64,000 nucleotides of DNA from a bacterium (GCA_965204535.1 OZ241996.1:928001-992000), one strand, 5' to 3'. Numbered from the stretch's first letter, positions 36,219 through 54,848 are shown. Notes: a model not told the origin generated them from the sequence alone. Numbers and translations: made by a program.

Positions 36219-38000
36219 GAGACTGTGAGAGTATTGGATTTCACAGTCTCCGGAACAGGGCTCGCTTACGCTTGCAGCCCGATGGCCGGACACTGTCTTC
36301 AACTTCGGGAGCAACAACACCGCAGAGCCGGGAGAGAAACGTCTCGGCGGCCGGTCAGCTCGGGGTCGCGGTCAAGTCCTCGAAGAATCGGCTTCAAGTT
36401 CACACGCCATTCGTCCCCAACCGCTGTTTTTGCAGACAATGCTCCACAAATGCAGCTCCGCCCAGCACACGCATGACCCGCTTGAAGTTGTAACCCAGCG
36501 TCATCAGGCTGAATTCGCCGCGGCATTTGCCGAGTCCGCGCATCACAAAATGATCCATCCCCGCCCAGCGCTTGATCGTACCGAATGGATGTTCGACGAG
36601 TGTGCTTCGCCCGCGCATCAATGGCACACGGGCGTTCATCTTCTTGCGATGCCGGTCCACCACGTCCTCATGCTCCCAGCGTTGTATCCTGCGCGTCGAT
36701 CTCGACTTTGTCAGGCATCGGCCCGACAACGAACAGTCCCGGCAAACCGCCGCCGTCCCGCGATAAAAGTAATACAGCCTGCCCCTGACGGTGGTCGTGC
36801 CGCCTCGAACCAGACGCTCTCCGGCCGGACAGACATACGTGTCATCCTGCGCATCGTAACGGAATTCATCGCTGCCGAATCGTCCGTCCTTGCCCTTGCG
36901 GGCCGTCTGGTTCGGTATCGGAACATACACCTCCATTCCCTTGTCTTCGCAACTCTTCAACTGTGCGCCGTTGAAGTAGCCCGAATCCGCCAGGCCGACC
37001 AGGCGTTCGCTGCCCATGGCTTCGCCGGCTTTCGTCATCATCGGCTCCAACTGAGCGGAGTCATTGCCGTCCTGCACCACATCCTCCGCGACAATCAGCT
37101 TGTGCTTGTCGTCCACCGCGATCTGGCAGTTGTATCCGCCCACCATTATATCGCCGTTCCTCAGAAGTCGAGCATCTGCATCGACCCCCGATACCTGACG
37201 CTCTCCGCTTTCCTGCAAATGCTCTTGCAGTGCCTTCTTCTTTTGTTGCCTCTCGATCAAGGCCTTGAGCTTCACCGGCAGGTCCGGATCCTCCGAACCG
37301 TCCCCACACTCCTCCCCGCGCGCATCCGCCTCGTCCAACTGCCGGTGATACGCCGCAATCCTCTTCTCCAAACGCCTCAGGTCCCTTGCCAGGGACCGCT
37401 TGGTTTGGAAGCTGTCCAGGTTCGCATCGGCCTTCAAAAAAGTCCCGTCGACCGCCACCCGGCTGCCGCCCAGCAGCGAGAGTTCGCGGCACAGCAGCAC
37501 GAACTCCCGGTTGGCCTCCTGCAGCGCAGCCACATTGTTCTTGCGAAAATCCGCAATCGTCTTGTAGCTCGGCGTCGCACCCTGGCACAGCCAGATCACT
37601 TCCAGATTGCGCCGCGTCTCCGCTTCGAGACGGCGCGAACTCCGTACCCGGTGCTGGTAGCCGTACAGATACAGCTTCAGCAGCAGCGCCGGGTCGAAAG
37701 CCGGCTGACCGGCGCCGCAGTTCGCTTCGGCATGCGCGAACCCCAGCGCCTCCAGGTCCAGCGTGCCGACGAACGCATCGATCGCGCGCACCGCATTGTG
37801 CTCGGACACGTAGTCGTCCAGACACGGCGGAAGCAGCATCATCTGGCTTCGGGACTGCACCTCCTGATAACGTCTCTCGGACATGGTGGTGACCCTTTAT
37901 GTGGTTATCTCACTCACCGGTAAAGATAGCATGTACAGACAACCCGGGCATCGCTCGCCAGCGTCACCCACCAGAATCGTGGGAATACTTTCACAGTCTC
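36219..38000 (-). mobile_element. Complete IS1182-family insertion sequence
   Basis: 17-bp IRs GAGACTGTGAGAGTATT / AATACTTTCACAGTCTC (1 mismatch); 16-bp target duplication CGGACAACGACTTCGG at 36203 and 38001. Confidence 0.92.
36400..37884 (-). CDS. IS1182-family DDE transposase
   Basis: LLKLYLYGY...SSRRLE, PSYKTIADFR, AVDGT, ADSGY, VEHPFGTIK. Confidence 0.95.
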   Translation of the reverse strand: MSERRYQEVQSRSQMMLLPPCLDDYVSEHNAVRAIDAFVGTLDLEALGFAHAEANCGAGQPAFDPALLLKLYLYGYQHRVRSSRRLEAETRRNLEVIWLCQGATPSYKTIADFRKNNVAALQEANREFVLLCRELSLLGGSRVAVDGTFLKADANLDSFQTKRSLARDLRRLEKRIAAYHRQLDEADARGEECGDGSEDPDLPVKLKALIERQQKKKALQEHLQESGERQVSGVDADARLLRNGDIMVGGYNCQIAVDDKHKLIVAEDVVQDGNDSAQLEPMMTKAGEAMGSERLVGLADSGYFNGAQLKSCEDKGMEVYVPIPNQTARKGKDGRFGSDEFRYDAQDDTYVCPAGERLVRGGTTTVRGRLYYFYRGTAAVCRDCSLSGRCLTKSRSTRRIQRWEHEDVVDRHRKKMNARVPLMRGRSTLVEHPFGTIKRWAGMDHFVMRGLGKCRGEFSLMTLGYNFKRVMRVLGGAAFVEHCLQKQRLGTNGV

Positions 38001-38414: not shown

Positions 38415-39833
38415 CTACCCGGACATCTTCCCGGCCAGAGCTTCGAACGCTTTCTGGAACGGCGCTTCGGGCGCGCGGAGGACGCCTGCGCCTATCTGGC
38501 CGACGCCCGGCTCGCGGTGGGCGATGCCCGTGTTGATGACGGGGTAGATGCCCGTCTCGATCACCTTGCGGATATCGACCCCCGTCGGCGCGCCCGCGAA
38601 ATCGAGGGCGGGCAGGGTGTAGTCGCGGCTCCGCGCCCAGGTGATCCCGTACATCTCGTTCGTCGCCCGAAAGGCCTCCGCCGTCGAGCCGCCCACGAAC
38701 TCGACGATGGCGGGCGCCGCCGCCATCGCGAAGCCGCCGACGCCGAGCGTTTCCATGATCGCCGAATCGCCGATGTCGGGATTGGCGTCTTCCTGCGAGT
38801 AGCCGGGGAAGAAGAGCCCCACGGGATTTTTCGCGGGCGCCGTGAACCACGCATCGCCCAGACCGGCGACCCTGATGCCGAAATCCGTGCCGTTGCGCGA
38901 CATGGCGTAGACCAGGGAGCAGCCCTCGACCCCCGCCATGGCGTCGAGGCTCGCCTTGGCGGCGGGCATCGCGAGGTTCAGGAAGAAGTGGTCGTTGCCC
39001 GCGAGAAATTCCGCCGCGCGGGAGATCACCTTGGTGTCATTCACAGCGTCCGCGAGCCAGGGCATGAGGGTGCGGGCGACCGTCGAGGTGGCCGCGACGT
39101 TCCGGTTGTGCGCCTCATCACCCATCTGCAGGGCGCGCGCGATGACGTTTTTGATGTCCAGCCCCTCCGGCATGGCCCGAAGCGCCGCGCGCAGGGCAGG
39201 GGCGAGTTCGTCCGCCATCCATTTCAGGCGCGCCAGCACGTCCTCTGAATACGCGCCGTAGCGGAGCACCTTGCCCAGGCCCTCGTTCAGCGTGCAGTAA
39301 GCCCTCCCGCCGCCACCGAGTTCCTCAGGCGCCCGGTTTTCGATGATGCTCACCGGCATCGAGGGCGAGACCACGCCCGCCATCGGCCCCACCGCCGAGT
39401 GGTGGTGACAGGGCTCGAAAGCGATATCGCCGCTTGCGCAGAGTTTTTCGGCCGCCTCCGCGTCCTGCGCCCAGCCTTCGAGAAGCGCCGCGCCGATCAT
39501 CGCGCCCTTGAGAGGCCCCGACATTCTACCCCACGCGATGGGAGGGCCCGCGTGCAGGAGGGTGCGCTCGCCCATGCCCGGCACCACGTCTATGGCTGTT
39601 CCGATATCCACCCACACGGGTCTGGCCGCCTGGAGGCGCTCGATGGCGGCGTCGTTGGCCGCATCGCAAGCGGCCAGTCGGTCGAGTCGGTCGATCATGT
39701 CGGGGTCTCCTCCGGCGGGGGGACGCCAGTCCACCTGCACCACGGGGGCATTCTGCGCGGCCAGGCTCTCCGCGAACAGCTCCACGCCGACGTTGGCGAC
39801 GCGGACGCCCTCCAGCAAGTTTTTCGCACTCAT
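38415..39833 (-). CDS. DUF1116 (YlbE/YahG, AllG-like) protein
   Basis: LHAGPP, PCHHHSAVGPMAG, NEGLGKVLRYGA, MGDEAHNRN, DIGDSAIMET, INTGIAH. Confidence 0.9.
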   Translation of the reverse strand: MSAKNLLEGVRVANVGVELFAESLAAQNAPVVQVDWRPPAGGDPDMIDRLDRLAACDAANDAAIERLQAARPVWVDIGTAIDVVPGMGERTLLHAGPPIAWGRMSGPLKGAMIGAALLEGWAQDAEAAEKLCASGDIAFEPCHHHSAVGPMAGVVSPSMPVSIIENRAPEELGGGGRAYCTLNEGLGKVLRYGAYSEDVLARLKWMADELAPALRAALRAMPEGLDIKNVIARALQMGDEAHNRNVAATSTVARTLMPWLADAVNDTKVISRAAEFLAGNDHFFLNLAMPAAKASLDAMAGVEGCSLVYAMSRNGTDFGIRVAGLGDAWFTAPAKNPVGLFFPGYSQEDANPDIGDSAIMETLGVGGFAMAAAPAIVEFVGGSTAEAFRATNEMYGITWARSRDYTLPALDFAGAPTGVDIRKVIETGIYPVINTGIAHREPGVGQIGAGVLRAPEAPFQKAFEALAGKMSG

Positions 39834-41386
39834 CCGCCCGGACCCTCGAGTGCGGCGGCAGCGGCGAGGCACGCCCCTTCGTGCGTATCCGCCACGAGGA
39901 CGCCTGCCTCTTTAAGTTTCACGCGCTGTGCCGTCAAACCCTGCGGGTCGCCCTCTGTGCCCGTCACCGAGCCGACGAACAGGACACCGGGACTCGACTC
40001 CTGGGCCTCCTCAATCGCCTTCGCCGCCTCTCCCGCCGGGTCTTCATGCGCGCCGAGTCCCAGCACCACGTCGAAGAGCACGACCGCCGTTTCGGGGTCT
40101 CCCGCTTCCTGGATGATGCGCTTGCTTCTGGGCGCGGGGTCGATCATGGGATGGGGTTTCCCCCGCGTGAAGAGGTCGTCGCCCATGTCCACGACCGCGT
40201 GGCCTTTCGATTTCAGGGGGTCGGGCATTTGTCCGCTAATTTTATCGAGGGGCGCGTTGGAGGAAATCCCCGGAGTTGATTTGCCGATTATCGCCTGCGC
40301 CTCGGCGCACAGCGTACCGCCCGTATAGACGCCGCGCAGGAAACGGCGGCCTTCCTCGCGCGCGCGGCTCCACCCGGCGATTCTCTCTCTCGTATCGGAG
40401 TCGAGTCCAGGAGCCGCCGCGTCGGCGCGCCCGCCGCTCAGCGAGACGGCGAGCCTCCCCGCTTCGGCCAGCGAGTCCGCGGCGTGAAGACCGGGATGCG
40501 CGAGGATATCCTCGTCCCGGCCCCCGACGAAGTGGATGACGGCGGGCTTTCCACACCGCGCAACCGTCTCCAATACTTTCTCCATCGCCGCGGCTTCGGG
40601 CGGTTTTCCGAGTACGAGGAGGACCTCCGTCGCCGCATCCTCGCTCAAGGTCTCGATAGCCTGGATCATGGCGAGGCCGCCGACGGCGTCGGTGACGTCG
40701 CGCCCCCCTGTTCCCAGGGCGCAGGAGATTCCGCCGCCTGCGGCGTCGATGGCGGCCATCGCCTCCTGAATCCCCGTTCCGGCGGCGCCGACGATTCCGA
40801 TTCCGCCGGCCCTCATGACGTTGCAGAAACCCAAGCCCACGCCTGCGATGTGCGCCGTGCCGCAGTCGGGGCCCATGACGAGCAAGCCCTTGTCGCGTCC
40901 GATCTTCTTGAGCGCCACCTCGTCTTCCACCGATACGTTGTCGCTGAAGATGAGGCAGTGGAGGCCTTTATTGAGCGCGCGTTCGGCCTCGCGGCGCACG
41001 CTCGGGCCGGGAACCGAGAAAAGGGCGAGGTTGATGAGCGGGTCTTCCCCGAGCGCCGCGTCGAGCGTGGGTGCGGAGAGGCTCGCGAGCGCTCCCGCTC
41101 CGCCGCTCGCGCGGGGGGCGGTGAGCGCCGCTTCCATCATGGCGAGCTCTTCCTGCGCCGTCTGCGTGTCTTGCGCCTCGGCGACGAGGACGAGGTCGTT
41201 CGGGCCGGCGCCTTTCGCTTCTTGTGAGAGAAGGCCGCTCGATGCGAGTTGTTCCAGGTTCATCGGCGTGCCCATGAGGGCCGCCGCTTGCCTGATGTGA
41301 GTCTTCTCCGAGGCGGCGGCGCTGATTCGCATGAGCTTCACCGAATCGTGGTACGCGCCGCTTAAGACGCGGACGGCCAGCGCCAT
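39830..41386 (-). CDS. fdrA: FdrA-family protein
   Basis: YHDSVKLM, MGTPMN, FSDNV, MGPDCGTA, GTGGRD, TGGTLC, GKPHPMIDP. Confidence 0.92.
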   Translation of the reverse strand: MALAVRVLSGAYHDSVKLMRISAAASEKTHIRQAAALMGTPMNLEQLASSGLLSQEAKGAGPNDLVLVAEAQDTQTAQEELAMMEAALTAPRASGGAGALASLSAPTLDAALGEDPLINLALFSVPGPSVRREAERALNKGLHCLIFSDNVSVEDEVALKKIGRDKGLLVMGPDCGTAHIAGVGLGFCNVMRAGGIGIVGAAGTGIQEAMAAIDAAGGGISCALGTGGRDVTDAVGGLAMIQAIETLSEDAATEVLLVLGKPPEAAAMEKVLETVARCGKPAVIHFVGGRDEDILAHPGLHAADSLAEAGRLAVSLSGGRADAAAPGLDSDTRERIAGWSRAREEGRRFLRGVYTGGTLCAEAQAIIGKSTPGISSNAPLDKISGQMPDPLKSKGHAVVDMGDDLFTRGKPHPMIDPAPRSKRIIQEAGDPETAVVLFDVVLGLGAHEDPAGEAAKAIEEAQESSPGVLFVGSVTGTEGDPQGLTAQRVKLKEAGVLVADTHEGACLAAAAALEGPGG

Positions 41387-41406
41387 ATCAATCGCTCCCC
41401 GGGAGG

Positions 41407-42126
41407 CTAGTCGTCGATGATCGCCACCGCGCGAATGGGGGAGCCCGACATGCCCCGGAACTTGATGGGCAGCACCGAGAGCTTGAACCCGTGGGACTTG
41501 GGAATGAGGTTCAGGTTGATCATGTTCTCGATGTGGCAGTAGTCCTTCTCCAGCATGACCCGGTGGGCCTCCCAGTAGCTGCGCGTCTCGTGCATCTTCC
41601 AGATCGGCACGTCCCAGCCGCTCGCGTCTATCCCCATCACGCGGATGCCGTTGTCGATGAGGTAGTGGGTCGCCTCGGCGCTCATGCCGGGCTGGTTCAT
41701 CGTGTAGTCGGGGTTGGTCTGCCAGTCCACGCTCGCGTCGGTGCGGATGAGCACGATGTCGAGCGGCTTGAGGGTGTAGTCGATCTTGTTAAGCGCGCCT
41801 TCTAAGTCCGCCGCCGTGATGGCGTAGCCCGATTCCCTATCCGTGAAATCGAGGACGACGCCGTCCGAAAGACACCATTCGAGCGGGATGCGCTCGGTCG
41901 TGAAGGCGTCGGGATTGTTGTGCCAGGGGGAATCGATGTGCGTGCCCGTATGGTCGCTCATGAAGATGACGCAGTGGTTCGTCACGATGGGGGCGCCGTA
42001 GTTAATCGAGCCCGTCCGCCTTGCCACGGTGTCCCAGTCTTCATCGACGGTGAGGGAGGGGCCGGGCAGGTCCGGGTAAATCGGCATGTCCCGGTATATT
42101 TCCATGCTCAGATCGATCAATTCCAT
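41407..42126 (-). CDS. Cyclase / kynurenine-formamidase-family metal hydrolase
   Basis: HTGTHIDSPWH, GID, HIEN, GSPIRAVA. Confidence 0.9.
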   Translation of the reverse strand: MELIDLSMEIYRDMPIYPDLPGPSLTVDEDWDTVARRTGSINYGAPIVTNHCVIFMSDHTGTHIDSPWHNNPDAFTTERIPLEWCLSDGVVLDFTDRESGYAITAADLEGALNKIDYTLKPLDIVLIRTDASVDWQTNPDYTMNQPGMSAEATHYLIDNGIRVMGIDASGWDVPIWKMHETRSYWEAHRVMLEKDYCHIENMINLNLIPKSHGFKLSVLPIKFRGMSGSPIRAVAIIDD

Positions 42127-42275
42127 CTCGGAGGTCTCCTTTTGGACGAAGAAAAGAAACGATCTCCATCTTGGGTGGTCGGTTCATTAGGGGAAGCGTT
42201 TGCAATGCGCGCATTATGTATGAACCCGAAGCGGCGGGCAACGCATCCGGTTTCCTCGCGAACGAGATGCGACGG

Positions 42276-42636
42276 GGGCTGTTGAAAAAGTCCCCCTAAG
42301 GGGTTCTTGCCCCCAATCGAGATTGTTCACCGTCATTCCGGCAATCCCTCCCTCACCGGGTGGAATTGATTGTAGGGGCCGCATATATGCGGCCCGTCGC
42401 TGGAAGGCGAAAAGGTAGGGTCGCGTATACGTCGGACATATATGTCCGACCTACACATCCCCCTCAAGGGTAGCTGTTGAAAAACCTTCATCAATCAAGC
42501 TCGACACGTAGGGGCGGACCTATGTGTCCGCCCAATCGCTCGGACGTAAACACGGAAAACGGGAGCACACACAGTCAGACATATATGTCTGACCCCTACG
42601 CCGAACCACCCAATCCGGGCCTTTTCAACAGCCCCA
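42276..42636. repeat. Composite repeat cluster between divergent operons
   Basis: GGCTGTTGAAAAA ends, several GTAG REPs, TTTTCAACAGCCC. Confidence 0.85.
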
Positions 42637-42846
42637 GAGGGGTCGGATTTGTGGAACCAGGACAAATAACTGGGAAAAGGAATCCACGTTACACGCCGGA
42701 AACATGAAACCTGTATATTTTGAATTTGGGTACGCATGAGGCATACTGGCGGAAAGCGACAAGGATAAATACACCTCGTCTCCCGAGCGGCGGCGCACGG
42801 AGACGGGTTTTCGCATTTTCACACCACACGCGGGGAGTGCGCCTTC

Positions 42847-43788
42847 TTGTCCCTCTTGTTCGACATATCCCTTTTCCAGCTCACGATGCTCATGATGGCC
42901 CCGCTCATCATCGCGTGTCTGGGCGAGACCATCATCGAGCGCTCGGGGATTCTCAACGTCGGCATCGAGGGGGTCGTGACGCTCGGCTCGGTGACGGGCT
43001 TTCTGCTCACCTACTATTCGGGCAGCGCGATCATCGGCTGCATGGTCGCGGCGCTCTCGGGGAGCGTCCTCACGCTGCTCCTGGCGTATTTCTCGATCAC
43101 CCTGCGGGCGAACCAGATCGTCATCGGGCTGGGGATATTCGTCCTGGGGCTGGGGATATCGCCCACCATCTACCGGCTGGCGGTGGGCGTGGTGCAGTCC
43201 ATCCCCCAGGTGCCGACGTTAAAAGAGATACCCATCCCGCTTTTGGGGAGCATCCCCTTTATCGGCGAGATTTTCTTCGCGCAAAACGGACTGGTCTACA
43301 TGTCCTATTTCCTGGTCGCGGCGGTGAGTTTCTTCCTCTTCAAGACGCCGCTGGGTCTGAGGCTGCGCGCCTGCGGGGAGAACCCCCGCGCGGCGGACAC
43401 GGTGGGGATCGACGTCGCCCGCATGCGCTACGGCGCGTGCGCTGTGGGCGGACTCTTCCTGGGCGTCGCGGGCGCATACCTGCCGCTCGTGATCTCGGGC
43501 TCGTTCACGGACAACATCGTGAACGGAAGAGGGTGGCTCGCCCTGATGCTGGTGATATTCGGACGCTGGGTGCCGGTATGGTCGTTCGTCGGCGCGCTGC
43601 TGTTCGCCTACGTGGACGCCTTTCAGTTCAAGGTCAACGCCCTGCCGCAGTTCGCCAAGATCATTCCGCCGCAATTCCTGCTCATGCTGCCGTACGTGTT
43701 CGCCATGATAGTTCTGGTTCAGGTCGCGCGGGGGGCGGAGAGCCCCCGCGCGCTGACGAGGCCATACGACCGTGAAGCCCGGGATTGA
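42847..43788 (+). CDS. Nucleoside-type ABC permease
   Basis: ERSGILNVGIEG, ACGENPRAAD, GRGWLAL, MLPYV. Confidence 0.92.
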   Translation: MSLLFDISLFQLTMLMMAPLIIACLGETIIERSGILNVGIEGVVTLGSVTGFLLTYYSGSAIIGCMVAALSGSVLTLLLAYFSITLRANQIVIGLGIFVLGLGISPTIYRLAVGVVQSIPQVPTLKEIPIPLLGSIPFIGEIFFAQNGLVYMSYFLVAAVSFFLFKTPLGLRLRACGENPRAADTVGIDVARMRYGACAVGGLFLGVAGAYLPLVISGSFTDNIVNGRGWLALMLVIFGRWVPVWSFVGALLFAYVDAFQFKVNALPQFAKIIPPQFLLMLPYVFAMIVLVQVARGAESPRALTRPYDREARD

Positions 43789-43833
43789 GCCACGTCCGGG
43801 CAACCGTGCTTTCTCATCAAGGAGGAGTGTGAA

Positions 43834-44835
43834 ATGAAAACCAAATGGACACGCCGATTGTTCTTCGCAGCCGCCGCATTCACGGCCCTGGCGCTGGCCG
43901 TACCCGGCCCTGCCCTCGCCGCGAAGGCGCACAAGTTCGCCATCATCCTGCCCGGACCCATCGAGGATGCGGACTACAACTTCCGGGGCTACGAGGTGGC
44001 GCAGGACGTCAAGAAGATGTTCAAGATCGAGACTTCCTACTCCGAGCGCATCTCGCCCGCGGACGCCGAGCGGGTGGCGCGCGAGTACATCTCCTCGGGC
44101 TTCAACATCATCGGCTTCCACGGCGGGCAGTACGTCCGGCTCGTGCAGAAGCTGGCCCCGAAGTTCCCCGAGGTGACGTTCATCATGGAGAGTTCGGCGA
44201 AATTCAAGGTGCCCAAGAACGTCTGGAACATTCACCGCCACTATTTCGAGGCCTTCTATCCCTTCGGCGTGCTGGCCGGCCTCGCCACGAAGACGAACAA
44301 GGTGAGCGTCATCGCGGGAATCCCGCTTCCGGACTTCAAGGCTTCCATCAACACCATCTCGGACGCGCTCAAGGCGACCAACCCCAAGGCGGAGCTCACC
44401 TACTCCTTCACCGGAAACCAGAACGATCCGGTCAAGGCGCGCCAGACCGCCGACGCCATGATCGCGGGCGGCGTCGACTTCATCATCAACATGGTGAACC
44501 TCGGCGTGTACGGCGTGGTCGAGGCCGCCAAGAAGTCGAAGCGCAAGGTGCTGGTCACCACGTTCTACACCGACAAGACGGACAAGGCGCCCAAGCATTT
44601 CGCCGGCACGCTGATCATCGATTTCCGGCCGCCCTACCGCAAGGCCCTGGCGGGAATCCTGAAAGGATCGCCCGGGGGATACGTGCCCATGCGCCCCGGC
44701 GTCGGTTTCGAGATCGAGTCTCTGGGCAACGTGTCGGCCGAGGCCATGAAGCGGACCAAGGAGGCCTATCAAAAGGTGCGTTCCGGGGAGATCAAGCCCC
44801 GGCTGGAGATGAAGAAGGTCATGTTGGCGAAATAA
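43834..44835 (+). CDS. BMP-family ABC substrate-binding protein
   Basis: Signal peptide, PGPIEDADYN, TKTNKV, DPVKA; GGAGG RBS. Confidence 0.88.
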   Translation: MKTKWTRRLFFAAAAFTALALAVPGPALAAKAHKFAIILPGPIEDADYNFRGYEVAQDVKKMFKIETSYSERISPADAERVAREYISSGFNIIGFHGGQYVRLVQKLAPKFPEVTFIMESSAKFKVPKNVWNIHRHYFEAFYPFGVLAGLATKTNKVSVIAGIPLPDFKASINTISDALKATNPKAELTYSFTGNQNDPVKARQTADAMIAGGVDFIINMVNLGVYGVVEAAKKSKRKVLVTTFYTDKTDKAPKHFAGTLIIDFRPPYRKALAGILKGSPGGYVPMRPGVGFEIESLGNVSAEAMKRTKEAYQKVRSGEIKPRLEMKKVMLAK

Positions 44836-44887
44836 CAGCGCGAGCGCCCCGCCCCAATCTTCCGGGCGGGGCGGGGCGTGAGAACGG

Positions 44888-46444
44888 ATGAAAGTGATGA
44901 CGGAAAAAACTGTTTCCTGCGTCGAGATGTACGGCGTCAGCAAGTCCTTCGGGGAAGTCCGCGCCCTAGACGCGGTCGACTTCGAGGCCGCCGAGGGGGA
45001 GATCCACGCCCTCCTGGGCGAGAACGGCGCGGGCAAGACCACGCTCATGAACATCCTGAGCGGCCTCTACCGCATGGACGAGGGCCAGATCGCGATCGAA
45101 GGGCGCGAGGTGGACATCCACTCCCCGCAGGATGCGATCGCGGTCGGCGTCGGGATGGTTCACCAGCACGTGGAGCTGATCGGCAACTTCACCGCGCTCG
45201 AGAACATCCTGCTCGGGCGCGAGGGCTCGCGCTGGCGGCTCGACGTCGAAGCCCGGCGCGGTTCGGTGGAGGAGCTCGCGGCGAATTACGGCCTCTCCAT
45301 TCCGCTCGATGAGGGGGTGAAGAGCCTGCCCGCGGGCATTCAGCAGAAAGTGGAGATTTTGAAAGCCCTCTACCACGGCGCGGACATCCTGATCCTGGAC
45401 GAGCCGACGACCATGCTCACCCCCCACGAGGTGGACGGGCTGTTCTCGATCCTCAAATCCTTCGCCAAGGGCGGGCTGACGGTCGTCTTCATCACGCACA
45501 AGATCCAGGAGGTGCTGGACAACTGCGACAGCATCACCGTGTTCCGGGGCGGGCGGAAGATCGACACCATCCCCCGCGAGGAGGCCACCCGCGAGATACT
45601 CGTCCAGATGATGATGGGCGAGCGCGGGATGCCGCCCGAGGGCGAGCGGCCGGCGGGGCCGTCTGCGGCCATAGAGGGGGGTCCCGCGCTTTCGGTGCGG
45701 GGGGTGCGCACCTCGGCGAAGTGGGGGGTGCCGCTCAGGGACGTCGCCTTCGACGTCCCCCGGGGGCTCATCGTCGGCATGGCGGGCATCTCGGGGAACG
45801 GCCAGAAGGAACTGGCGGAAGCCCTGGCCGGGCTGATCGAAACGGAAGAGGGCGAGGTTCACCTGGACGGTGAGCAAGTATCAAACCTCTCGGTGGCCGG
45901 ACGCATCGCGCGGGGGATGAGCCTCCTGCCGCAGGACAGGATAGAGGAGGGGATTCTGCCGGGCCTGAGCCTGGCCGAGAATTTCGTGCTCGGCCTCCAC
46001 CCCCACATCTTCAGGCGGCGCGGCGTTTTCGAGCGCGAGGCCGCCTTCGAGCTCGGCAGGAACGCCATCGCGGAATTCAACATCCTCGCGCGAAACGAGC
46101 ACGTGCCGGCCGCGCACCTCTCGGGCGGGAACATCCAGAAGACCATCGTGGCGCGCTCGGTCATGCTCGCCCACAAGACGGGCGGGAAGGTGATGATCGC
46201 GAACAACCCCACGCGCGGCCTCGACGTCATGGCCGCCTCGTTCGTGCACGGCCGGCTGCGCGAGCTTCGCGCGGGCGGGGCGGGCGTTTTGCTGATATCG
46301 GAAGACTTGGACGAGCTTTGCCTGATGAGCGACCGCATCGTCGTCATCTATGCGGGGGAGATTCTCGGCGCCTTCGACGGCCCCGAATACGACATCTACC
46401 GGATAGGCGCGCTCATGGCGGGCCAGAGAGATGAGGTGTCCTGA
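44888..46444 (+). CDS. Nucleoside/sugar ABC ATPase (tandem domains)
   Basis: GENGAGKTT, ILDEPT, LSGGNIQK, PTRGLD. Confidence 0.95.
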   Translation: MKVMTEKTVSCVEMYGVSKSFGEVRALDAVDFEAAEGEIHALLGENGAGKTTLMNILSGLYRMDEGQIAIEGREVDIHSPQDAIAVGVGMVHQHVELIGNFTALENILLGREGSRWRLDVEARRGSVEELAANYGLSIPLDEGVKSLPAGIQQKVEILKALYHGADILILDEPTTMLTPHEVDGLFSILKSFAKGGLTVVFITHKIQEVLDNCDSITVFRGGRKIDTIPREEATREILVQMMMGERGMPPEGERPAGPSAAIEGGPALSVRGVRTSAKWGVPLRDVAFDVPRGLIVGMAGISGNGQKELAEALAGLIETEEGEVHLDGEQVSNLSVAGRIARGMSLLPQDRIEEGILPGLSLAENFVLGLHPHIFRRRGVFEREAAFELGRNAIAEFNILARNEHVPAAHLSGGNIQKTIVARSVMLAHKTGGKVMIANNPTRGLDVMAASFVHGRLRELRAGGAGVLLISEDLDELCLMSDRIVVIYAGEILGAFDGPEYDIYRIGALMAGQRDEVS

Positions 46445-46463
46445 GGTGGCGGGCGCGGCAGGC

Positions 46464-47516
46464 GTGAGCGAGAAGAAAAAGGCGGCGCTTGAGTTCGCCG
46501 TCACCTACGCGGCGGCGGGGGCGCTGGCGCTCGCCTGCGGGGCCGTCTTCATCGTCGCCTTCGGCGGCGACGTGCTCGTGGCGCTCGGCACGGTGCTTCG
46601 CTCCTCGCTCGGCACGTGGGGCGGGTTCGCGCAGACCTTGAACAAGTTCTGCCCGCTCCTGCTCGGCTCGCTCGCGGTCGCCTTCGGGATGCGCGGCGGG
46701 CACTTCAACATCGGCGTGGACGGGCAGATCTACGCGGGCGCCATCGGCATGACGGGCACGGCCTTCGCCCTGGAAGGCATGAACCTCCCCTGGCCGGTCT
46801 TCGTGCCCCTGGGGCTGCTGGGCGGAATCGCCGGCGGGTGGCTGTGGGGCTTCATCCCCGGCATCCTGCGCGTGCGCTTCCAGGTGAGCGAGATTTTCGT
46901 GACGGTCATGCTGAACTTCGTGGCGCTCTACCTCGTGGACTACCTCGCCAACGGCCCCTGGAACGATCCGCTCGCGGGAGAGGCCATCTCGCTCCCGATC
47001 CCCGACGCCTCCGTGCTGCCCCAAGTGATGCCGAGGGCGGGCGCGCACGCGGGCTTCCTCATCGCGCTCGCCGCCGCCGTCGGCATGTACTTCTTCATGA
47101 CGCGCACCATCGCGGGCTACGAGATACGCGCGGTGGGCGACAACCCCCGCGCCGCGCGCTTCGGCGGCATCAACGTCGCGCGCGTCACGCTCATCATCAT
47201 GCCGACCTGCGGCGCGCTCTCGGGCCTCGCGGGCGCCATCGAGGTCTCGGGGTTCCACCAGAGCCTCCTGCTCGGCATCAGCGGGGCGGAGGGCGCGCCC
47301 AACTACGGCGCGATGGCCATCTTGATCGCCGTCATCGGGCGCAACAATCCGCTCGGCGTCACGATAGCCGCCGCCGTGTTCGCCGTGCTCGTCTCGGGCT
47401 CCGACTCCTTACAGCGCAGCATCGGCCTCCCCGGCGCCGCCGTGTTCGTCTTCCAGGCGATCATCGTCCTGACCGTCGTCTTCGTGCAGGCGCGCCGCAG
47501 CGTGCGGGCGGGGTAG
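46464..47516 (+). CDS. Nucleoside-type ABC permease
   Basis: FNIGVDGQ, VMLNF, VGDNPRAA, NNPLG; start uncertain. Confidence 0.9.
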   Translation: MSEKKKAALEFAVTYAAAGALALACGAVFIVAFGGDVLVALGTVLRSSLGTWGGFAQTLNKFCPLLLGSLAVAFGMRGGHFNIGVDGQIYAGAIGMTGTAFALEGMNLPWPVFVPLGLLGGIAGGWLWGFIPGILRVRFQVSEIFVTVMLNFVALYLVDYLANGPWNDPLAGEAISLPIPDASVLPQVMPRAGAHAGFLIALAAAVGMYFFMTRTIAGYEIRAVGDNPRAARFGGINVARVTLIIMPTCGALSGLAGAIEVSGFHQSLLLGISGAEGAPNYGAMAILIAVIGRNNPLGVTIAAAVFAVLVSGSDSLQRSIGLPGAAVFVFQAIIVLTVVFVQARRSVRAG

Positions 47517-47547
47517 GGGGGTATTTTTCCGTGGGTTCATGGATTTT

Positions 47548-48432
47548 GTAGGGGCCGCATATATGCGGCCCTTGTAGAGGGTGAAAAAAACCAGGGTCGC
47601 ATATATGCGACCCCTACACTCCCTTTGGCAAGGTGAAATTGACCGACCGAGGCGCGGGAGTGCGATCGTGATTTTCGTAGGGGTCAGACATATATGTCTG
47701 ACTATGTATCCGCCCGTGCCAAGGCGGGCGTCATGAAACCGGGCGGGCACAGGGGCCCGCCCCTACGGGTGAAACGCGATTGATGCGCGAGGAATTGTAG
47801 GGACAGGGTCGCGACCTGTCCGAGGTCGCTCCCCCCTTGGGGGAATTCCCCACCGACGAAAGAAGGATTCACTCCCCCCTTGAGGGTCGGGCTTCCCGAG
47901 GGGAAAGCCCGACGAGGAAGCCGAGCGGTTTATGCGAAGGCTGAATCGGTGGGGGGACATGCCACAGAAAAAAACTCCCCCCACCGGCGCGACTTCGGGC
48001 TTCGCCCTCGTCTTGCCGTCTGGCTTTCCCCTCGGGAAGCCCGACCCTCAAGGGGGGAGTTTATCCCTCTCTCGTCGGTTGGAAATAACACCGGAATGAC
48101 GAGCAAAACCGCAACGACCGCCCGTAGGGACAGGCCCCCGTGCCTGTCCGAAATCCCATAAAGGCAACCCCCCCTACCCCCCCTTGTCAGGGGGGTAAGA
48201 AAAATCAAAACCCCCTCAGCCCGGTGGTGGGCGACGTCTTTTTATACCCCCTTGGCAGGAAGGCAAGAAAAATCGAAACCCCTCCACCGGCAGGGGCGGA
48301 TCGCCTTTTTATACCCCCCTGACAAGGGGGGGGTAGGGGGGGTTGGTTTTCGTCGAGGGAGGTCGGGGGTTCACGCATCATTGCGGTCTTACGCGGGTCG
48401 CATATATGTCGGACATATATGTCCGACCTACA
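47548..48432. repeat. Large composite repeat cluster
   Basis: Many GTAG REPs, CACTCCCCCCTTGAGGG element with TTCCCnAGGGGAAAGCC sub-hairpins, CCCCCCTACCCCCCCTTGTCAG pair. Confidence 0.85.
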
Positions 48433-48494
48433 GAAACCCTTCGCGTCACTCCTCCTTGTTATGTATACGCTCGCCAGCCGTATCGAGCGACGCC

Positions 48495-49598
48495 CTACAC
48501 CGCCCTTACGACCGCGGCGACGGGGCCGCCGCCGGGAGGCCCCTGGTGCTCGGCCCCGCCCGAGACGTAGGTCATCGTGTCGCCGACGACCGAAGACACC
48601 ACCGCGTTCACCACCGAGCGCGCGTGGCGCGTGTTGTTGATGTCCGAATCGTCGAGCATCGTGTGCCGCCGCCCGCGCACCAGCCCGTCGGGGGAGGCCT
48701 CGCACTTGGCGAAGACGTTCACGACGCGCCCGCGCTGTGCGGGCGTGAGCGCCCACTCGAACGCGACCCCTGCGTTCACGATGGCCTCGCGCACGGCGTC
48801 GCGGTCGATGGCGTCTTGCATGACGCTGTGGCCGACGACGAGGTCCCCGCCCCAGGCCGCGCTGTTGCCGATGACCATCGCCTCGTTGCACATGAGCTCG
48901 ATTCCCGCCGAAGTCGAGGCGACGCCCGATTGGAGCGACCAGTCCGCACAGATCACCTCATCGCTCAGGGCGCTTTCGGCCACCTCGCCCGCCGCGAGCG
49001 CCACCCCCAGCGCCGACGCCCCGCGCGAGTAGCCCATGGATTTATACGTGTCCTCCGTGCAGACGCTCTCCCCGCGCCTGGCCGCGTCCGCCATGCGCTC
49101 GCCCGTGAGGAGGGGGCACTTCACCTGGACGAAGTGCAGGTCCGCCGCGCTCTCGATCTGCGCCTCATCCATCAGCCTTCGCACGAGGTCCGCCGTCGCG
49201 CGGGCCTGCGCCATGCGGCCCATTTCTTCCGGTAAAAAATCCGCCGTGTGGCCCGAGGCGATGGCGAGGCGCTTGGCGCGCCCGTCGCCCGCGCCGTTCT
49301 CGGACTTCGTGAACACCGAGAAGTGCGGGCACATGACGCCTTCCGTTCCGCCGGACATGATGAGGGCGATCTGCGCCTCCACCTCCTCGCGGCTCTTGCC
49401 CATCAGGCGTGAGAAATAATCGAGCAGGACGAAGTTGCTGAACCCGCGCGAGAAATCGTTCACGCAGCCGTTGCCCTCGGTCTTGCCCATGATGCCGACG
49501 ACGTCCTCCGCCCGGCATTCGCCCCCCTCGATGAGAGCGGCGATCCCTGAGATGTCGTCGGGCGAGTCCATCGCCACGCGGAACAGGTCGGCCTGCAT
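48495..49598 (-). CDS. atzD: Cyanuric acid hydrolase / barbiturase family ring-opening amidohydrolase (AtzD-like)
   Basis: GKTEGNGCVNDFSRG, MSGGTEG, HFVQVKCPLLT, SMGYSRGASALG, YVSGGAEHQGPPGGGP. Confidence 0.88.
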   Translation of the reverse strand: MQADLFRVAMDSPDDISGIAALIEGGECRAEDVVGIMGKTEGNGCVNDFSRGFSNFVLLDYFSRLMGKSREEVEAQIALIMSGGTEGVMCPHFSVFTKSENGAGDGRAKRLAIASGHTADFLPEEMGRMAQARATADLVRRLMDEAQIESAADLHFVQVKCPLLTGERMADAARRGESVCTEDTYKSMGYSRGASALGVALAAGEVAESALSDEVICADWSLQSGVASTSAGIELMCNEAMVIGNSAAWGGDLVVGHSVMQDAIDRDAVREAIVNAGVAFEWALTPAQRGRVVNVFAKCEASPDGLVRGRRHTMLDDSDINNTRHARSVVNAVVSSVVGDTMTYVSGGAEHQGPPGGGPVAAVVRAV

Positions 49599-49726
49599 CT
49601 TGCGTCCCCCTTTCGCAAAGGCGCGCGCGGGCGCGCTCGCGGATACCGGAATTTTTATGGGGAAAAACGTAGCACCGCAGGGAGCGCCTGTCCAAAGGGC
49701 GTGTATATAAGAGGTGGGGTTTTGCG

Positions 49727-50640
49727 GGGACAGGCCTCCGCCCCTGTCCGGATGAATTCTTTGACGATTGAAACGGGATTCGGGCGGGCACAGGGGCCCG
49801 CCCCTACGGAAACCGACGACGAGCAAAGCCGCAACGACTGCCCGTAGGGACAGGCCCCCGTGCCTGTCCGGGGTCACTCCCCCCTTGAGGGAATTCCCCA
49901 CCGACGAAAGAAGGATTCACTCCCCCCTTGAGGGTTGTTGGCGACTGACGAGAGAGAAAATCACTCCCCCCTTGAGGGGGAGTCGATGAAGCCGAGCGTT
50001 TTATGCGAAGGCTGAATCGGTGGGGGGTAAAATGCGTTTTATCGCCAATCCGAATTTTACCCCCCACCGAATCGCTTTCGGGCTTACGCCCTCAGTTCTT
50101 CGTCTGGCTTCCCCATCGGGAAGCCAGACCCTCAAGGGGGGAGTGAATCCTCTCTGCTGAATTGGGAAAGACCTCAAGGGGGGAGTGATTCATTGTTCTT
50201 CGGGCTTTTTCTTGCCCCCCTGACAAGGGGGGGTAGGGGGGGTTGCCTTTATCCCTGACAAGGGGGTTGGGTTTGTAGGGGCAGGCCTCCGCCCCTGTCC
50301 GGATGAATTCTTTGACGATTGAAACGGGATTCGGGCGGGCACAGGGGCCCGCCCCTACGGAAACCGACGACGAGCAAAGCCGCAACGACTGCCCGTAGGG
50401 ACAGGCCCCCGTGCCTGTCCGGGGTCACTCCCCCCTTGAGGGAATTCCCCACCGACGAAAGAAGGATTCACTCCCCCCTTGAGGGGGAGTCGGTGAGGTA
50501 AGGGCGTAAGCCCGCAAGCGAACCGGTGGGGGGAGATTTTTTCTGTGGCATGTCCCCCCACCGAATCGGCCTTCGCCAAGGCTCGGCCTCTTCGTCTGGC
50601 TTTCCCCTCGGGAAGCCAGACCCTCAAGGGGGGAGTGAAT
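49727..50640. repeat. Composite repeat cluster with ~200-bp direct duplication
   Basis: 49731..49934 repeated at 50282..50485; several palindrome families. Confidence 0.85.
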
Positions 50641-50668
50641 GCCTCTCACACGGCCCATCCTTCACCCC

Positions 50669-51628
50669 TCATTTATATATAAACGTCCCCTTCTCCCCGC
50701 GCAGGGCGGGGAGGGCGTCTTCGAGCGCGGCGATGTGCACCCGCTCGCCGCCGCCTTCGAGAAAGCGGATAGCCGCCTCTATCTTGGGGCCCATGCTGCC
50801 GGGCGGGAAATGGCCCTGGGCGTGGTATCCCTTTATCTCGTCGAGCGACACGCGCTCAAGCTCGCGCTGCGCGGGCGTCCCGAAGTGGACGGCCACCCTC
50901 GGCACGGCGGTCAGGATCATCATCGTCTCGATCCCCAGGACGTTCGCCATGAGTGCGGAGGTCAAATCCTTATCGATCACGGCGGCCAGCCCGCGCCGCG
51001 CGCCGTCCGCTTCCCGCACGACGGGGATGCCCCCGCCGCCGCCCGCGATGACCACCGCTCCGCTCCTGGCGATCGTCTCGATGAGCGAGATGTCCACGAT
51101 GTGTTTGGGCTTTGGCGAGGGAACGACGTGCCGCCAGCCGCGTCCGGCGTCCTCGCGGAACGTCCAGCCCATCTCGCGCTCATAGCGCCTCGCTTCTTCT
51201 TCCGTGTAGGTGTAGCCCACGAACTTGGTCGGCGCGTCGAACGCCGGGTCCGCCGGGTCGACCTCCACCTGCGTCAGGAGGCACACCACGTGGCGCGGGT
51301 CGCCCGCGCGTCTTAACGCGTTCTCGAACGCCTGCATCAGGAGGTAGGCGATGCCCCCCTGGCTGTGGGCGACGCAGATGTCGAGCGTCATGGGCGTCAC
51401 CTGCTCGCTCGATACCGCCTGGCGCATGAGTATCTTGCCCACCACGGGGCCGTTGCCGTGCGTGATGACGAGTTCGTTTTCGAGTCGTAAGAGCGGGAGC
51501 AGGGCGCGGCCGGTCGCGGCGGCGATGGCGGCCTGTTCCGCCGCGGTGCCGCGTATCTCGGGCGGGTGGGTCGCGTTGCCGCCGACGGCGACGAGCAGGC
51601 GCCGGGGAAGATCGGGCGGGGGAGCCAT
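50669..51628 (-). CDS. arcC: Carbamate kinase
   Basis: AVGGNA, THGNGPVVG, PTKFVG, VVPSPKP, GGGGIPV, VIDKD, GSMGPK. Confidence 0.93.
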   Translation of the reverse strand: MAPPPDLPRRLLVAVGGNATHPPEIRGTAAEQAAIAAATGRALLPLLRLENELVITHGNGPVVGKILMRQAVSSEQVTPMTLDICVAHSQGGIAYLLMQAFENALRRAGDPRHVVCLLTQVEVDPADPAFDAPTKFVGYTYTEEEARRYEREMGWTFREDAGRGWRHVVPSPKPKHIVDISLIETIARSGAVVIAGGGGGIPVVREADGARRGLAAVIDKDLTSALMANVLGIETMMILTAVPRVAVHFGTPAQRELERVSLDEIKGYHAQGHFPPGSMGPKIEAAIRFLEGGGERVHIAALEDALPALRGEKGTFIYK

Positions 51629-52689: not shown

Positions 52690-53240
52690 CATCACGAGGC
52701 CAGAGGACTCAACCCACGGCGAACCACGCCACCCATCCCCTCCAGTCTCGTGAACGGCAAGGCCCGGCGGCCCGCGCAGCAGGCGGCGCTCAGGCCGGGA
52801 ACGGCAAGCCCGGCGAAAGCCGGAAGACGGAATATCACGAGGCCAGAGGACTCAACTCATGATGCGCCACGCCGCAAATCCCTCTCCAGTCTCGTGAACG
52901 ATTCAGGGCAAGGCCCGGCGCGAGCCTGAAACGAAAAATTCGGCTCGGGGCCAGGAAGTTTTTTATCGCGAGGCTGGAGGACTCAAACATCATGAATCCT
53001 GACCAGAATCCCACACCAGTCTCGTGGATAAGCCGGCCACCGGCCCGGGCGCGTGAGTCCGGGTCGGCGGCCGCGCGCTCCGGCCCCGGTTCGATGAAAC
53101 GATGAAACGATAGAAGCCCGAAAACGAAGGATAAGGAAAGTCGGAAAGTCAAAGAAAGGAGGTCGAATCCGAACACTTCAAAGTTTTGTTGGTTGCAAAG
53201 CTCTTTAATATCACGAGACTAGGAGGACTCAAAAGTGATG
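52690..53240 (+). promoter_or_regulatory. Repeated RBS-like/anti-SD hairpin units in a long 5' leader
   Basis: ATCRCGAG..GAGGACTCAA at ~52691, 52834, 52965, 53210; complementary CCAGTCTCGTG arms at ~52742, 52886, 53016. Confidence 0.7.
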
Positions 53241-54848
53241 AAACTCACCAGCAACAAAATCTTTTCATTCATGCTGGCGGCGGCCTTCGCGCTGACGCTG
53301 GCCGGCTGCGGCGGCGGTGGCGGCAGCACTACGCAAACGCCGACCGATATGCCCGACCCGCAAGCGGCATGTGAAGCCGATGGCGGCGAATACAGGGACG
53401 GGACTTGCGTCACGGCCGCAGAACTGACGGCGGAGCGCATGGCTTCGCAGCGCATGGCCATCGACACGGCGATCGATGCGGCCGAAACCGCGGTTGCCGG
53501 GATCGACGACGATTCCACGGATTCGGAAGTCACCGCCGCCAACATGGCGGTCGCGGCTGCCCGGACGGCGATCTCGGATGCGGCCGATCTTCCGCAGGCC
53601 GAGAAGGACGCGAACACCGGAACGGTCGACGCGATTGCCAACCGGCTCTCTGCCGCCCTGGAAAGCCGCATGGCCGCCATGGACGATGAGCAGAAGGCCG
53701 CGGATGCGGCCATGATGGCGACGGCCCTGAAGCTGCACGCGGGCCTCGAGCACGGCCTTGGCGATACCGACAACGTCCGAACCGGCGCAAGTGACGCCGA
53801 CGGCGTCATCAGCGTGACTATCGGCACGGCCAACGCCGTCCCACTGGCGGAAGACAAGGATACGACGGTCGCCGCCAACCACGGCTGGACAGGCAAGAGG
53901 CACACGGCCGAGCCCACGGGTGATGTCGGCACGTACGAGGCGTATGTCTACTCGAACGTCGGCACCGGGACGGAGGGCGACCCGTTCAATGAAGAGTACA
54001 CGCTGAACGCAGACGGCGAAACAGGGGATATCACTGCCCTCGCTGGCTATGTTACGGGCCGCGTCGCCAGCCCGAACTTCGACCAGTCCGCCGGCAGCAA
54101 ACTATTCAAGTTGCCGACCAATGCGGTCCGGGTGCTGGTTGCCGGCAGCTATCACGGGGTGTCGGGCACCTATTACTGCACCCCCACCAGCGGTGAGACG
54201 TGCTCCGCTACCATAGCCGTAAGCGGTTTCACGCTTGCGGGCGGGACCTGGTCGTTCAAGCCCACCACCGCGACGGCCAGGGTCACGACCGTGGCGGACA
54301 CGATTTATGCTTCCTACGGCTGGTGGCTCCACAAGTCCGAGGACGGCAACACCTTCACCGCGAGCGCTTTCGCGACGGCCAGGGGCACCGTCCCGGCCGC
54401 CACGGGCATCGATACCCTGCGTGGAACGGCGACATACATGGGCGGCGCCGCCGGCAAGTACGCGCTCCACAGCGCCACCGGGGGGACGAACGACGCCGGC
54501 CACTTCACCGCGCGGGCGACGCTCGAAGCCGATTTCAACGCCGACATGATCACGGGCACCATCGACCAGTTCATGGGCGCGGACGGTGAGTCTCGGAACT
54601 GGTCCGTCGAGTTGAAGAAGTCCGGCGTCGGCGCTGGCGGGGCCATTACCGGTAGCGACGGCACCGGCGATCCGATGCAGACGGTCTGGACCATCGACGG
54701 GACGGCCGCGGCCGCCGCCGGCCAGTGGTCCGGTACTCTCTACGACAACGGCGACGACGGCGTTCCGAAGGTCGGGACCGGCACGTTCCATTCGACGTAC
54801 AGCACGTCCGGCAGGATGGTCGGCGCGTTCGGCGTGGACAAGCAGTAG
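53238..54848 (+). CDS. Surface lipoprotein with TbpB-like C-terminal beta-barrel
   Basis: Lipobox LAGC + polyG, Ala-rich helical stalk, YGWWL, ATYMGGAAGKY, LEADF, C-terminal GAFG. Confidence 0.8.
   Translation: MKLTSNKIFSFMLAAAFALTLAGCGGGGGSTTQTPTDMPDPQAACEADGGEYRDGTCVTAAELTAERMASQRMAIDTAIDAAETAVAGIDDDSTDSEVTAANMAVAAARTAISDAADLPQAEKDANTGTVDAIANRLSAALESRMAAMDDEQKAADAAMMATALKLHAGLEHGLGDTDNVRTGASDADGVISVTIGTANAVPLAEDKDTTVAANHGWTGKRHTAEPTGDVGTYEAYVYSNVGTGTEGDPFNEEYTLNADGETGDITALAGYVTGRVASPNFDQSAGSKLFKLPTNAVRVLVAGSYHGVSGTYYCTPTSGETCSATIAVSGFTLAGGTWSFKPTTATARVTTVADTIYASYGWWLHKSEDGNTFTASAFATARGTVPAATGIDTLRGTATYMGGAAGKYALHSATGGTNDAGHFTARATLEADFNADMITGTIDQFMGADGESRNWSVELKKSGVGAGGAITGSDGTGDPMQTVWTIDGTAAAAAGQWSGTLYDNGDDGVPKVGTGTFHSTYSTSGRMVGAFGVDKQ

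Follow-up and report, generated by a model that had tools for sequence, protein, structure and literature searches.

A cyanuric acid hydrolase locus with AllFG and carbamate kinase genes: a possible phosphorolytic route for cyanurate

How would a bacterium use cyanuric acid when the gene of its ring-opening hydrolase stands among genes for an AllFG-type carbamoyltransferase, a carbamate kinase and an importer? This question is raised by a 64,000-nucleotide stretch of bacterial DNA (GCA_965204535.1 OZ241996.1:928001-992000; "the window"), in which nine intact genes on both strands occupy positions 38415-51628 (13.2 kb). A preliminary description of the window had proposed an energy-conserving pathway for cyanurate or a related ureide, and translations and family scans confirmed that all the genes it listed belong to the stated families and lie within this span. 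We propose that AllFG(H) cleaves 1-carboxybiuret, the product of ring opening, with phosphate to allophanate and carbamoyl phosphate, from which carbamate kinase makes ATP; we see about even chances for this chemistry. The module itself is probably a third cyanurate pathway, real and conserved.

The hydrolase gene (48495..49598, minus strand) encodes a 367 amino acid (aa) protein of the AtzD/TrzD family (PF09663, 493 bits). Its best PDB match is TrzD (5T13, E 4.7e-146), with 64% identity, and barbiturase is far behind (7.8e-79). The three Ser-Lys pairs of the Toblerone-fold family are kept (K39, S82, K160, S230, K298, S346), and the motifs listed in the preliminary description (GCVNDFSRG, MSGGTEG, SRGASALG and YVSGGAEHQG, with THGNGPVVG in the kinase) are all present in the translations. 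The Arg/Thr/Arg/Gly/Gly signature reported for cyanurate hydrolases (PMC3758960) is found at R192, T323, R327, G347 and G348, and is common to 78 of 79 related loci, the remaining one being truncated in the alignment. The barbiturase signature (Asn, His, Lys, Val, Ser/Ala) is absent from the window protein and present in the related loci L182 and L219. Barbiturate, considered as an alternative substrate, is ruled out by the signature residues or at least made unlikely, because the signature is cyanurate-type, and barbiturate is described as an inhibitor, not a substrate, of such hydrolases (PMC4051656). On these residues, the window hydrolase is predicted to open cyanuric acid to 1-carboxybiuret. 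Since the model NF052395 (cyanuric acid amidohydrolase) also passes barbiturases without separating the two classes, and NF050097 (BiuH) misses clear BiuH relatives, both models mislabel such loci. The same genome contains another gene of the AtzD family (G000:C2:94671-97229; L004:9672-12230), whose product has a mixed signature (N, T, R, A, G); the gene is co-oriented with an AtzA-like amidohydrolase gene, and another cyclase gene is nearby.

The AllF (FdrA) subunit (39830..41386, minus strand; 518 aa) contains succinyl-CoA-synthetase-like domains (PF02629, PF00549; NF004760 452.2, cut-off 433) and is 39-40% identical to FdrA and YahF. AllG (DUF1116/YlbE/YahG-type; 38415..39833, minus strand; 472 aa; PF06545 315.8 bits; PDB 3CLQ E 8e-124) shares 52% identity with YlbE, 44% with YahG and 51% with the plasmid copy beside trzD. 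The first ~55 aa of AllG match what in E. coli is the C-terminal tail of FdrA (NF004760 positions 501-554; PDB 3DMY tail). The alignment of FdrA with succinyl-CoA synthetase alpha ends at about residue 235-245 of the latter, presumably just before the phosphohistidine loop of that enzyme. As a speculation, such an end would fit an enzyme that releases an acyl phosphate and depends on a separate kinase. In three other genomes (G433:C14, G236:C9, G155:C265), allG matches fall within open frames of 1011-1051 aa that may encode FdrA-AllG fusions.

The genome (4.56 Mb, 2 contigs, 95.7% complete, 5.26% contaminated) contains a single allH, which is located on the other contig (G000:C2:1496971-1497897) and followed by a panE-like gene; its product is only 24% identical to E. 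coli AllH. Contamination was considered for this gene (GC content 54.5%) and ruled out, as the allH-panE pair is found in all three close relatives fetched. In free-living relatives, the scattered genes are united: fdrA, allG, kinase, atzF and AtzF C-terminal domain genes in L147, kinase-allH-panE in L289, and allG beside allH-panE in L148. These neighbourhoods suggest that the distant allH and atzF are tied to the module by descent. Further copies exist in the window genome: a second allG is fused in an operon with a CodA/AtzC-like deaminase gene (G000:C2:2542013-2544369; L003:8014-10370), and a second fdrA stands alone on another contig (G000:C1:1546048-1547472). They may form another split module that shares the single allH and kinase.

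The carbamate kinase gene (50669..51628, minus strand; 319 aa; NF009007 308.8, cut-off 266) is the only one found in the genome by a search with this single match. Its product scores 329 with TIGR00746, under the cut-off of 358, and matches PDB 1E19 with an E value of 1.1e-79. The motifs GGN, HGNGP, DKD and GSMGPK and the PTK lysine are kept; Asn11 and Lys126 have been named as functional residues of carbamate kinase (PMC3474736). The preliminary description had pointed to GPVVG in place of GPQVG. The replacement is present, but the Gln of HGNGPQVG is Val in the window kinase and in all 14 other lineage kinases compared; because it is lineage-wide and the remaining catalytic motifs are kept, it says nothing yet on function, and no support was found for it as a mark of changed substrate.

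The ATP-binding cassette (ABC) importer is encoded on the plus strand in the order permease (42847..43788; PF02653), BMP/PnrA-type substrate-binding protein (43834..44835; PF02608, 112.7 bits), ATPase with two ABC domains (44888..46444; PF00005, two stretches) and permease (46431..47516; PF02653). The best PDB match of the BMP protein is the atrazine-binding protein AtzT, though weak (E 1.8e-21), and it is 29% identical to the BMP protein of the trzD plasmid island.

Ring opening of cyanurate gives carboxybiuret, which, like oxalurate and the barbiturase product ureidomalonate, is a carboxylate-ended acyl-urea; the three differ only in the group between the carbonyls, ureidomalonate being the CH2 analogue of carboxybiuret. 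Because they are so alike, one chemistry fits all of them, in which removal of the terminal carbamoyl group gives oxamate, malonamate or allophanate, respectively. In the pathway we propose, the importer would bring in cyanuric acid, the AtzD/TrzD-type hydrolase would open it to 1-carboxybiuret, and AllF-AllG together with the distant AllH would split off the terminal carbamoyl group with phosphate. Carbamate kinase, if working in this direction, would turn the carbamoyl phosphate into ATP, ammonia and CO2. Allophanate would then pass to the AtzF amidase encoded elsewhere, or, in organisms without AtzF, through a second round of the same AllFGH cleavage. In E. coli, AllFGH is reported to form oxalurate from oxamate and carbamoyl phosphate, with all three genes needed for full activity (PMC11326118), and in catabolism, carbamoyltransferase reactions have to be pulled by a coupled carbamate kinase (PMC6022934).

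Is the hydrolase linked to AllFG in other organisms? We summarized 79 loci fetched by hydrolase similarity (best 80 of 259), a set biased to relatives. The gene fdrA or allG is present in 23 of the 79 loci, both in 20, and the count is 16 among the 45 loci of at least 15 kb. Twelve of the 23 linked loci belong to the window lineage, while the other 11 come from ten other genomes of several phyla, titled Pelolinea, Melaminivora (two loci), two other Chloroflexota, Moorella mulderi, Dactylosporangium, two Bacillota, Enterococcus aquimarinus and Naasia. The closest related loci include Nitrospinota titles. The assembly titled Melaminivora alkalimesophila contains two different linked modules (L044 and L067), of which L067 resembles the Bacillota locus L071, and one of the two may be foreign or a contaminant. 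Stand-alone genes for the allophanate hydrolase C-terminal domain (PF21986), with no amidase domain beside them, are also located near the hydrolase (L034:2902-3282, L043:11130-11519, L055:12498-12875, L058:17469-17861, L072:10486-10869).

The linkage is also carried by plasmids, for which we examined three of 132 plasmid records with a match. Plasmid pSR8, whose hydrolase is identical to the crystallised TrzD over 370 of 370 residues, has the order fdrA, DUF1116, hydrolase, arcC, amidohydrolase, BMP ABC importer and DUF2877. The island recurs on a Klebsiella plasmid, where atzF is encoded two genes upstream of fdrA. In a third plasmid type, hydrolase and purine permease genes are followed by DUF2877, fdrA, DUF1116 and the kinase gene, with atzF about 5 kb further. 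Hydrolases at about 55% identity (L091 and kin) are found on more than 40 plasmids, mostly enterobacterial, and the one record of this group that was examined contains hydrolase, permease, DUF2877, fdrA, DUF1116 and kinase genes. The co-occurrence check suggested in the preliminary description therefore had a positive outcome, with a linkage conserved far beyond the window lineage, and the gene set turns up in many anaerobes.

Even samples of genomes are free of the similarity bias of the fetched loci. In an Actinomycetota-type sample (401 genomes; the phylum of the Dactylosporangium genome G018), 19 of the 22 genomes that contain the hydrolase family hold allG versus 30 of the 379 without the family, or 18 of 21 versus 26 of 375 if five unpublished genomes are left out. 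The tally of 20 loci from this sample excludes the centre and one unpublished genome. The barbiturase signature is found in 16 of them, with carbamate kinase in 13 and fdrA or allG in 10 of the fetched stretches, and all 16 genomes hold allG. Three loci have the cyanurate signature: one is linked, one contains BiuH and AtzF without allG, and the third is a 3.7 kb contig from a genome without allG. Generally, actinobacterial barbiturases (L259-L274, L182, L219) nearly always occur with carbamate kinase and allFGH, and their loci often add a PucR regulator, a purine/uracil permease and xanthine-dehydrogenase-like genes. In a Bacillota-type sample (401 genomes; the phylum of the Moorella genome G017), the hydrolase family is present in 9 genomes besides the centre. 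Five of the six cyanurate-signature loci contain allH, fdrA and allG, three of the five resembling Moorella and thus not independent, with the allG background of that phylum outside the count; the sixth has BiuH and AtzF instead. Two of three loci with other signatures are also linked.

What does the AllFG module replace? In the window genome, the AtzF amidase domain (597 versus a cut-off of 511; unlinked and without the C-terminal domain) and a complete-looking urease operon are present elsewhere. Genome-wide, no BiuH over cut-off was found (four isochorismatases, of which the best, at 117.9 of 370, is RutB-like), no AtzE (best amidase 383.3 of 425.75) and no urea carboxylase, so AtzF is left without a recognised allophanate supplier. 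No AllD over cut-off was found either in the genome (best 221.9 of 496.2), and no oxalurate source is therefore evident; matches to AllB, AllC and AllD are at most 34% identical and unlinked, those to E. coli AllB at most 32%. As the AllH, the isochorismatases, all 14 amidase loci and the best allantoinase-like matches are located outside the window, the earlier statement that the window contains no biuret hydrolase, AtzE/AtzF, allantoinase or DUF2877 gene holds. For the possibility of a hydrolytic route elsewhere in the genome, the outcome is divided: no complete recognised route exists, but part of the route may be hydrolytic because AtzF and urease are present.

In order to compare, 47 genomes were picked from the loci. 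AtzE over cut-off is found in none of the 30 hydrolase genomes with AllH versus 13 of 17 without AllH, and BiuH over cut-off in 2 of the 30. A clean exclusion between AllFGH and BiuH was rejected: at cut-off, BiuH or AtzE is present in 2 of 30 versus 16 of 17 genomes, and this becomes 10 of 30 versus 17 of 17 at 240 bits. The BiuH-like proteins under cut-off, which score about 250-295, are real BiuH relatives. Only the contrast of AtzE with AllH stays absolute. Among linked genomes outside the lineage, nine have no AtzE, AtzF or urease over cut-off, and seven of them are also without a BiuH-like gene.

Several observations weigh against the carboxybiuret reading. Carboxybiuret is short-lived, with half-life values of about 20 min (PMC7948467) or several minutes, and its decarboxylation to biuret with the help of the enzyme is favoured in the paper on the TrzD structure (PMC5366886). 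AllH is not encoded in the same operon as AllFG but on another contig, and in E. coli, allFG without allH brought back only 7% of oxamate formation (PMC11326118). BiuH-like genes (at least 240 bits) are present in 10 of 30 AllH-positive genomes and lie inside four linked loci, and the window genome contains the amidase at 383 bits against the AtzE model; true AtzE in other genomes score 593-736. A hydantoinase A/B fusion gene precedes cyclase-fdrA-allG in free-living relatives, one of which (L150) has no hydrolase in the fetched 21 kb. Of 80 metagenome loci with allG, only 5 contain a hydrolase-family gene (4 among the 20 of at least 15 kb), and hydrolase-linked AllG are scattered in the AllG tree (FastTree; 67 rows, thinned at 85% identity from 126 matches), in which no single clade of cyanurate-type AllG was found. 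AllFG therefore serves other substrates too. The genome counts, moreover, are not phylogenetically independent.

A wider form of the proposed pathway takes AllFGH as a general acyl-urea carbamoyltransferase, which would strip carboxybiuret twice (two carbamoyl phosphate per cyanurate) and ureidomalonate once, and would give the true function of the trzD-flanking genes. We hold this extension only tentatively, as a possibility somewhat short of an even call.

A rival explanation takes biuret as the substrate: carboxybiuret would lose CO2, and AllFG(H) would convert biuret with phosphate to urea and carbamoyl phosphate, the urea passing to urease or being excreted. The short life of carboxybiuret and the possible assistance of TrzD in its decarboxylation speak for it, as does the complete-looking urease operon, and the nine outside genomes without AtzF, AtzE or urease would fit an excreted stable end product, like oxamate in E. 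coli. However, biuret is without the terminal carboxylate common to oxalurate, ureidomalonate and carboxybiuret; in the window lineage, urease is present in 6 of 12 close relatives and missing in the other 6, while AtzF is kept in 10 of 12; and in four linked loci the product of a BiuH-like gene would be a competitor for biuret. We consider this explanation unlikely.

Another rival divides the locus into two separate ring-nitrogen modules, in which cyclase, AllFG and kinase would act on a different ureide (either parabanate-derived oxalurate or one that stems from a hydantoin), while the hydrolysis of cyanurate would be finished by an unrecognised amidase, AtzF and urease. The genes do form three separately transcribed blocks rather than one operon. 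The minus-strand block cyclase-fdrA-allG is tightly packed, with gaps of 20 and -4 bp (fdrA and allG overlap by 4 bp), the importer block is on the plus strand, and atzD and the carbamate kinase gene are on the minus strand with 1070 bp between them. This rival is also favoured by the hydantoinase fusion (1310-1325 aa; L034:10038-14015, L144, L147, L148, L150; absent from the window locus) before the cyclase in free-living relatives, by metagenome loci in which cyclase and allFG without hydrolase are common, by the 14 amidase loci, and by the interpretation of allFGHK beside biuH as oxalurate catabolism (PMC12625717). Against it, allG and the hydrolase gene are adjacent and co-oriented in other phyla and on trzD plasmids. 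No AllD over cut-off is present, and in the tree allantoin-cluster AllG form a clade of their own (2 rows, support 100) with the window AllG outside, among its lineage. No orthologue of the hydantoinase fusion was found in the window genome (best match 36-39%), while the rest is kept. This division appears quite unlikely. As linked AllG are scattered, the tree rules out neither rival.

The remaining rival, which comes closest to the preliminary description, lets a hydrolase (the cyclase here, BiuH elsewhere) make allophanate, which AllFG(H) would split to carbamate and carbamoyl phosphate. Four linked loci hold a BiuH-like gene in genomes without AtzF over cut-off (G020, G021, G133, G678), in which allophanate therefore needs another outlet, and allFGHK adjoins biuH in nitrifiers (PMC12625717). 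The cyclase-family metal hydrolase gene (kynurenine formamidase/isatin hydrolase fold; 41407..42126, minus strand; PF04199, 129.9 bits) is the most conserved gene of its block in the window lineage, with products 95-99% identical in 10 close relatives. Its PDB matches are weak (best E 8.6e-14) and the Atlas search gives a family name only; it may act as a biuret hydrolase analogue. The cyclase is present in all 12 linked loci of the window lineage and in none of the 11 outside, so it is not a general step, and the intermediate role given to it in the preliminary description is unsupported. With neither cyclase nor BiuH in Moorella-type loci and trzD plasmid islands, and with AtzF kept in the window lineage as a competitor for allophanate, this rival is distinctly improbable.

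For the carboxybiuret pathway, the energy yield has to be considered as well. ABC import costs ATP, about as much as one or two kinase turnovers return, so a net energy gain in the window organism is doubtful, and the organism may benefit more from nitrogen and carbamoyl phosphate than from net ATP. The ATP-conserving character suggested earlier is plausible in anaerobes, whose loci carry a DcuC/YfcC-like secondary carrier. In linked loci, a membrane protein of ~415 aa without Pfam match is encoded beside the hydrolase (L066:8722-9966; also L044, L047, L057, L064, L067, L071, L089 and L091), and the Atlas search places it near DcuC/YfcC-like carriers. It is a candidate cyanurate importer or substrate/product exchanger.

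The kilobase gaps flanking atzD (47517..48494 towards the importer and 49599..50668 towards the kinase gene) are filled with repeats that are present hundreds of times elsewhere in the genome, with 660 blastn matches and 90% coverage for the former and 512 matches and 87% coverage for the latter. In the relative L022, the spacing between kinase and hydrolase is only about 120 bp. An IS1182-family transposase gene (36400-37884) lies directly after allG and separates it from a branched-chain-type ABC importer, whose ATPase genes are absent from the window. On the other side, a predicted lipoprotein of 537 aa (53235-54848) has no Pfam or NCBIfam match, and an N-terminus similar to its own recurs in the same genome (C1:490676-492421). 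In RNA data, five runs contain just 0.05-0.07 of the words, and four of them, compared at 85% likeness, give short contig pieces that stem from relatives and cover parts of the locus; these data show neither transcription nor habitat.

Two hydrolytic cyanurate routes are listed in the literature (PMC6219798), and the published routes, as far as described in the sources consulted, are purely hydrolytic and supply nitrogen only. In the open full-text literature, we found no paper that describes a pathway joining cyanurate hydrolase with FdrA/DUF1116 or carbamate kinase, and none on the genes neighbouring trzD, although TrzD itself is characterised; neighbourhood figures in key papers outside open access may bear on the novelty. 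The parts are thus of known kinds, and the putative phosphorolytic route itself appears to be without description in the accessible literature. The breakdown of atrazine, melamine and pool disinfectants converges on cyanuric acid. If the route is true, cells could recover ATP or biosynthetic carbamoyl phosphate from it, the genes that surround trzD and the Moorella hydrolase, both in applied use, would be given a function, and the AllFGH family would gain a second and third substrate. If the general carbamoyltransferase reading is true, it would add a third pathway for cyanurate and a second one for barbiturate, with ATP made in both by substrate-level phosphorylation from fully oxidised carbon. 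Jessee et al. (1983) reportedly observed anaerobic cyanurate degradation, with cyanurate said to serve as an energy source, and their report would become directly testable. Cyanurate has been reported from Paramecium and at 147 ng/L in seawater (PMC12342508), and the marine window lineage suggests a natural supply.

Finally, we compared the locus with known systems. E. coli AllFGH (FdrA-YlbE-YlbF) with AllK (PMC11326118) is homologous (AllF 39%, AllG 52%, kinase 40%, and AllH distant at 24%) and follows the same proposed logic, acyl-urea and phosphate giving amide and carbamoyl phosphate. In contrast, the window locus has no adjacent allantoin genes and its genome no AllD, a cyanurate hydrolase takes the place of the upstream enzyme, the FdrA tail is part of AllG (protein lengths as in YahF/YahG), and allH is unlinked. 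The E. coli yahEFG-yahI-yahJ genes (DUF2877, FdrA-like, DUF1116, kinase-like and amidohydrolase) match the split of the window in protein lengths, but include no ring-opening hydrolase, and annotation gives them no function. Ammonia-oxidising archaea and comammox Nitrospira carry allFGHK beside biuret/triuret genes and without upstream allantoin genes (PMC12625717); they have no atzD, and the authors assign oxalurate, with no biuret-series substrate proposed in the consulted text. The hydrolytic routes AtzD-AtzEG-AtzH-AtzF (Pseudomonas sp. ADP) and CAH-BiuH-AtzF (PMC6219798) share the first enzyme family, with its cyanurate signature, and the AtzF domain, whereas here AllFG and carbamate kinase stand in the place of AtzE or BiuH, neither of which is over cut-off. 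The trzD island (Aminobacter sp. SR38 pSR8; Klebsiella quasipneumoniae pKqs_SB610_3) differs in that its genes form a single co-oriented run, which also includes DUF2877, a CodA/AtzC-like amidohydrolase and a secondary carrier, with no cyclase annotated, but it shares fdrA, DUF1116, hydrolase, carbamate kinase and the BMP ABC importer with the window.

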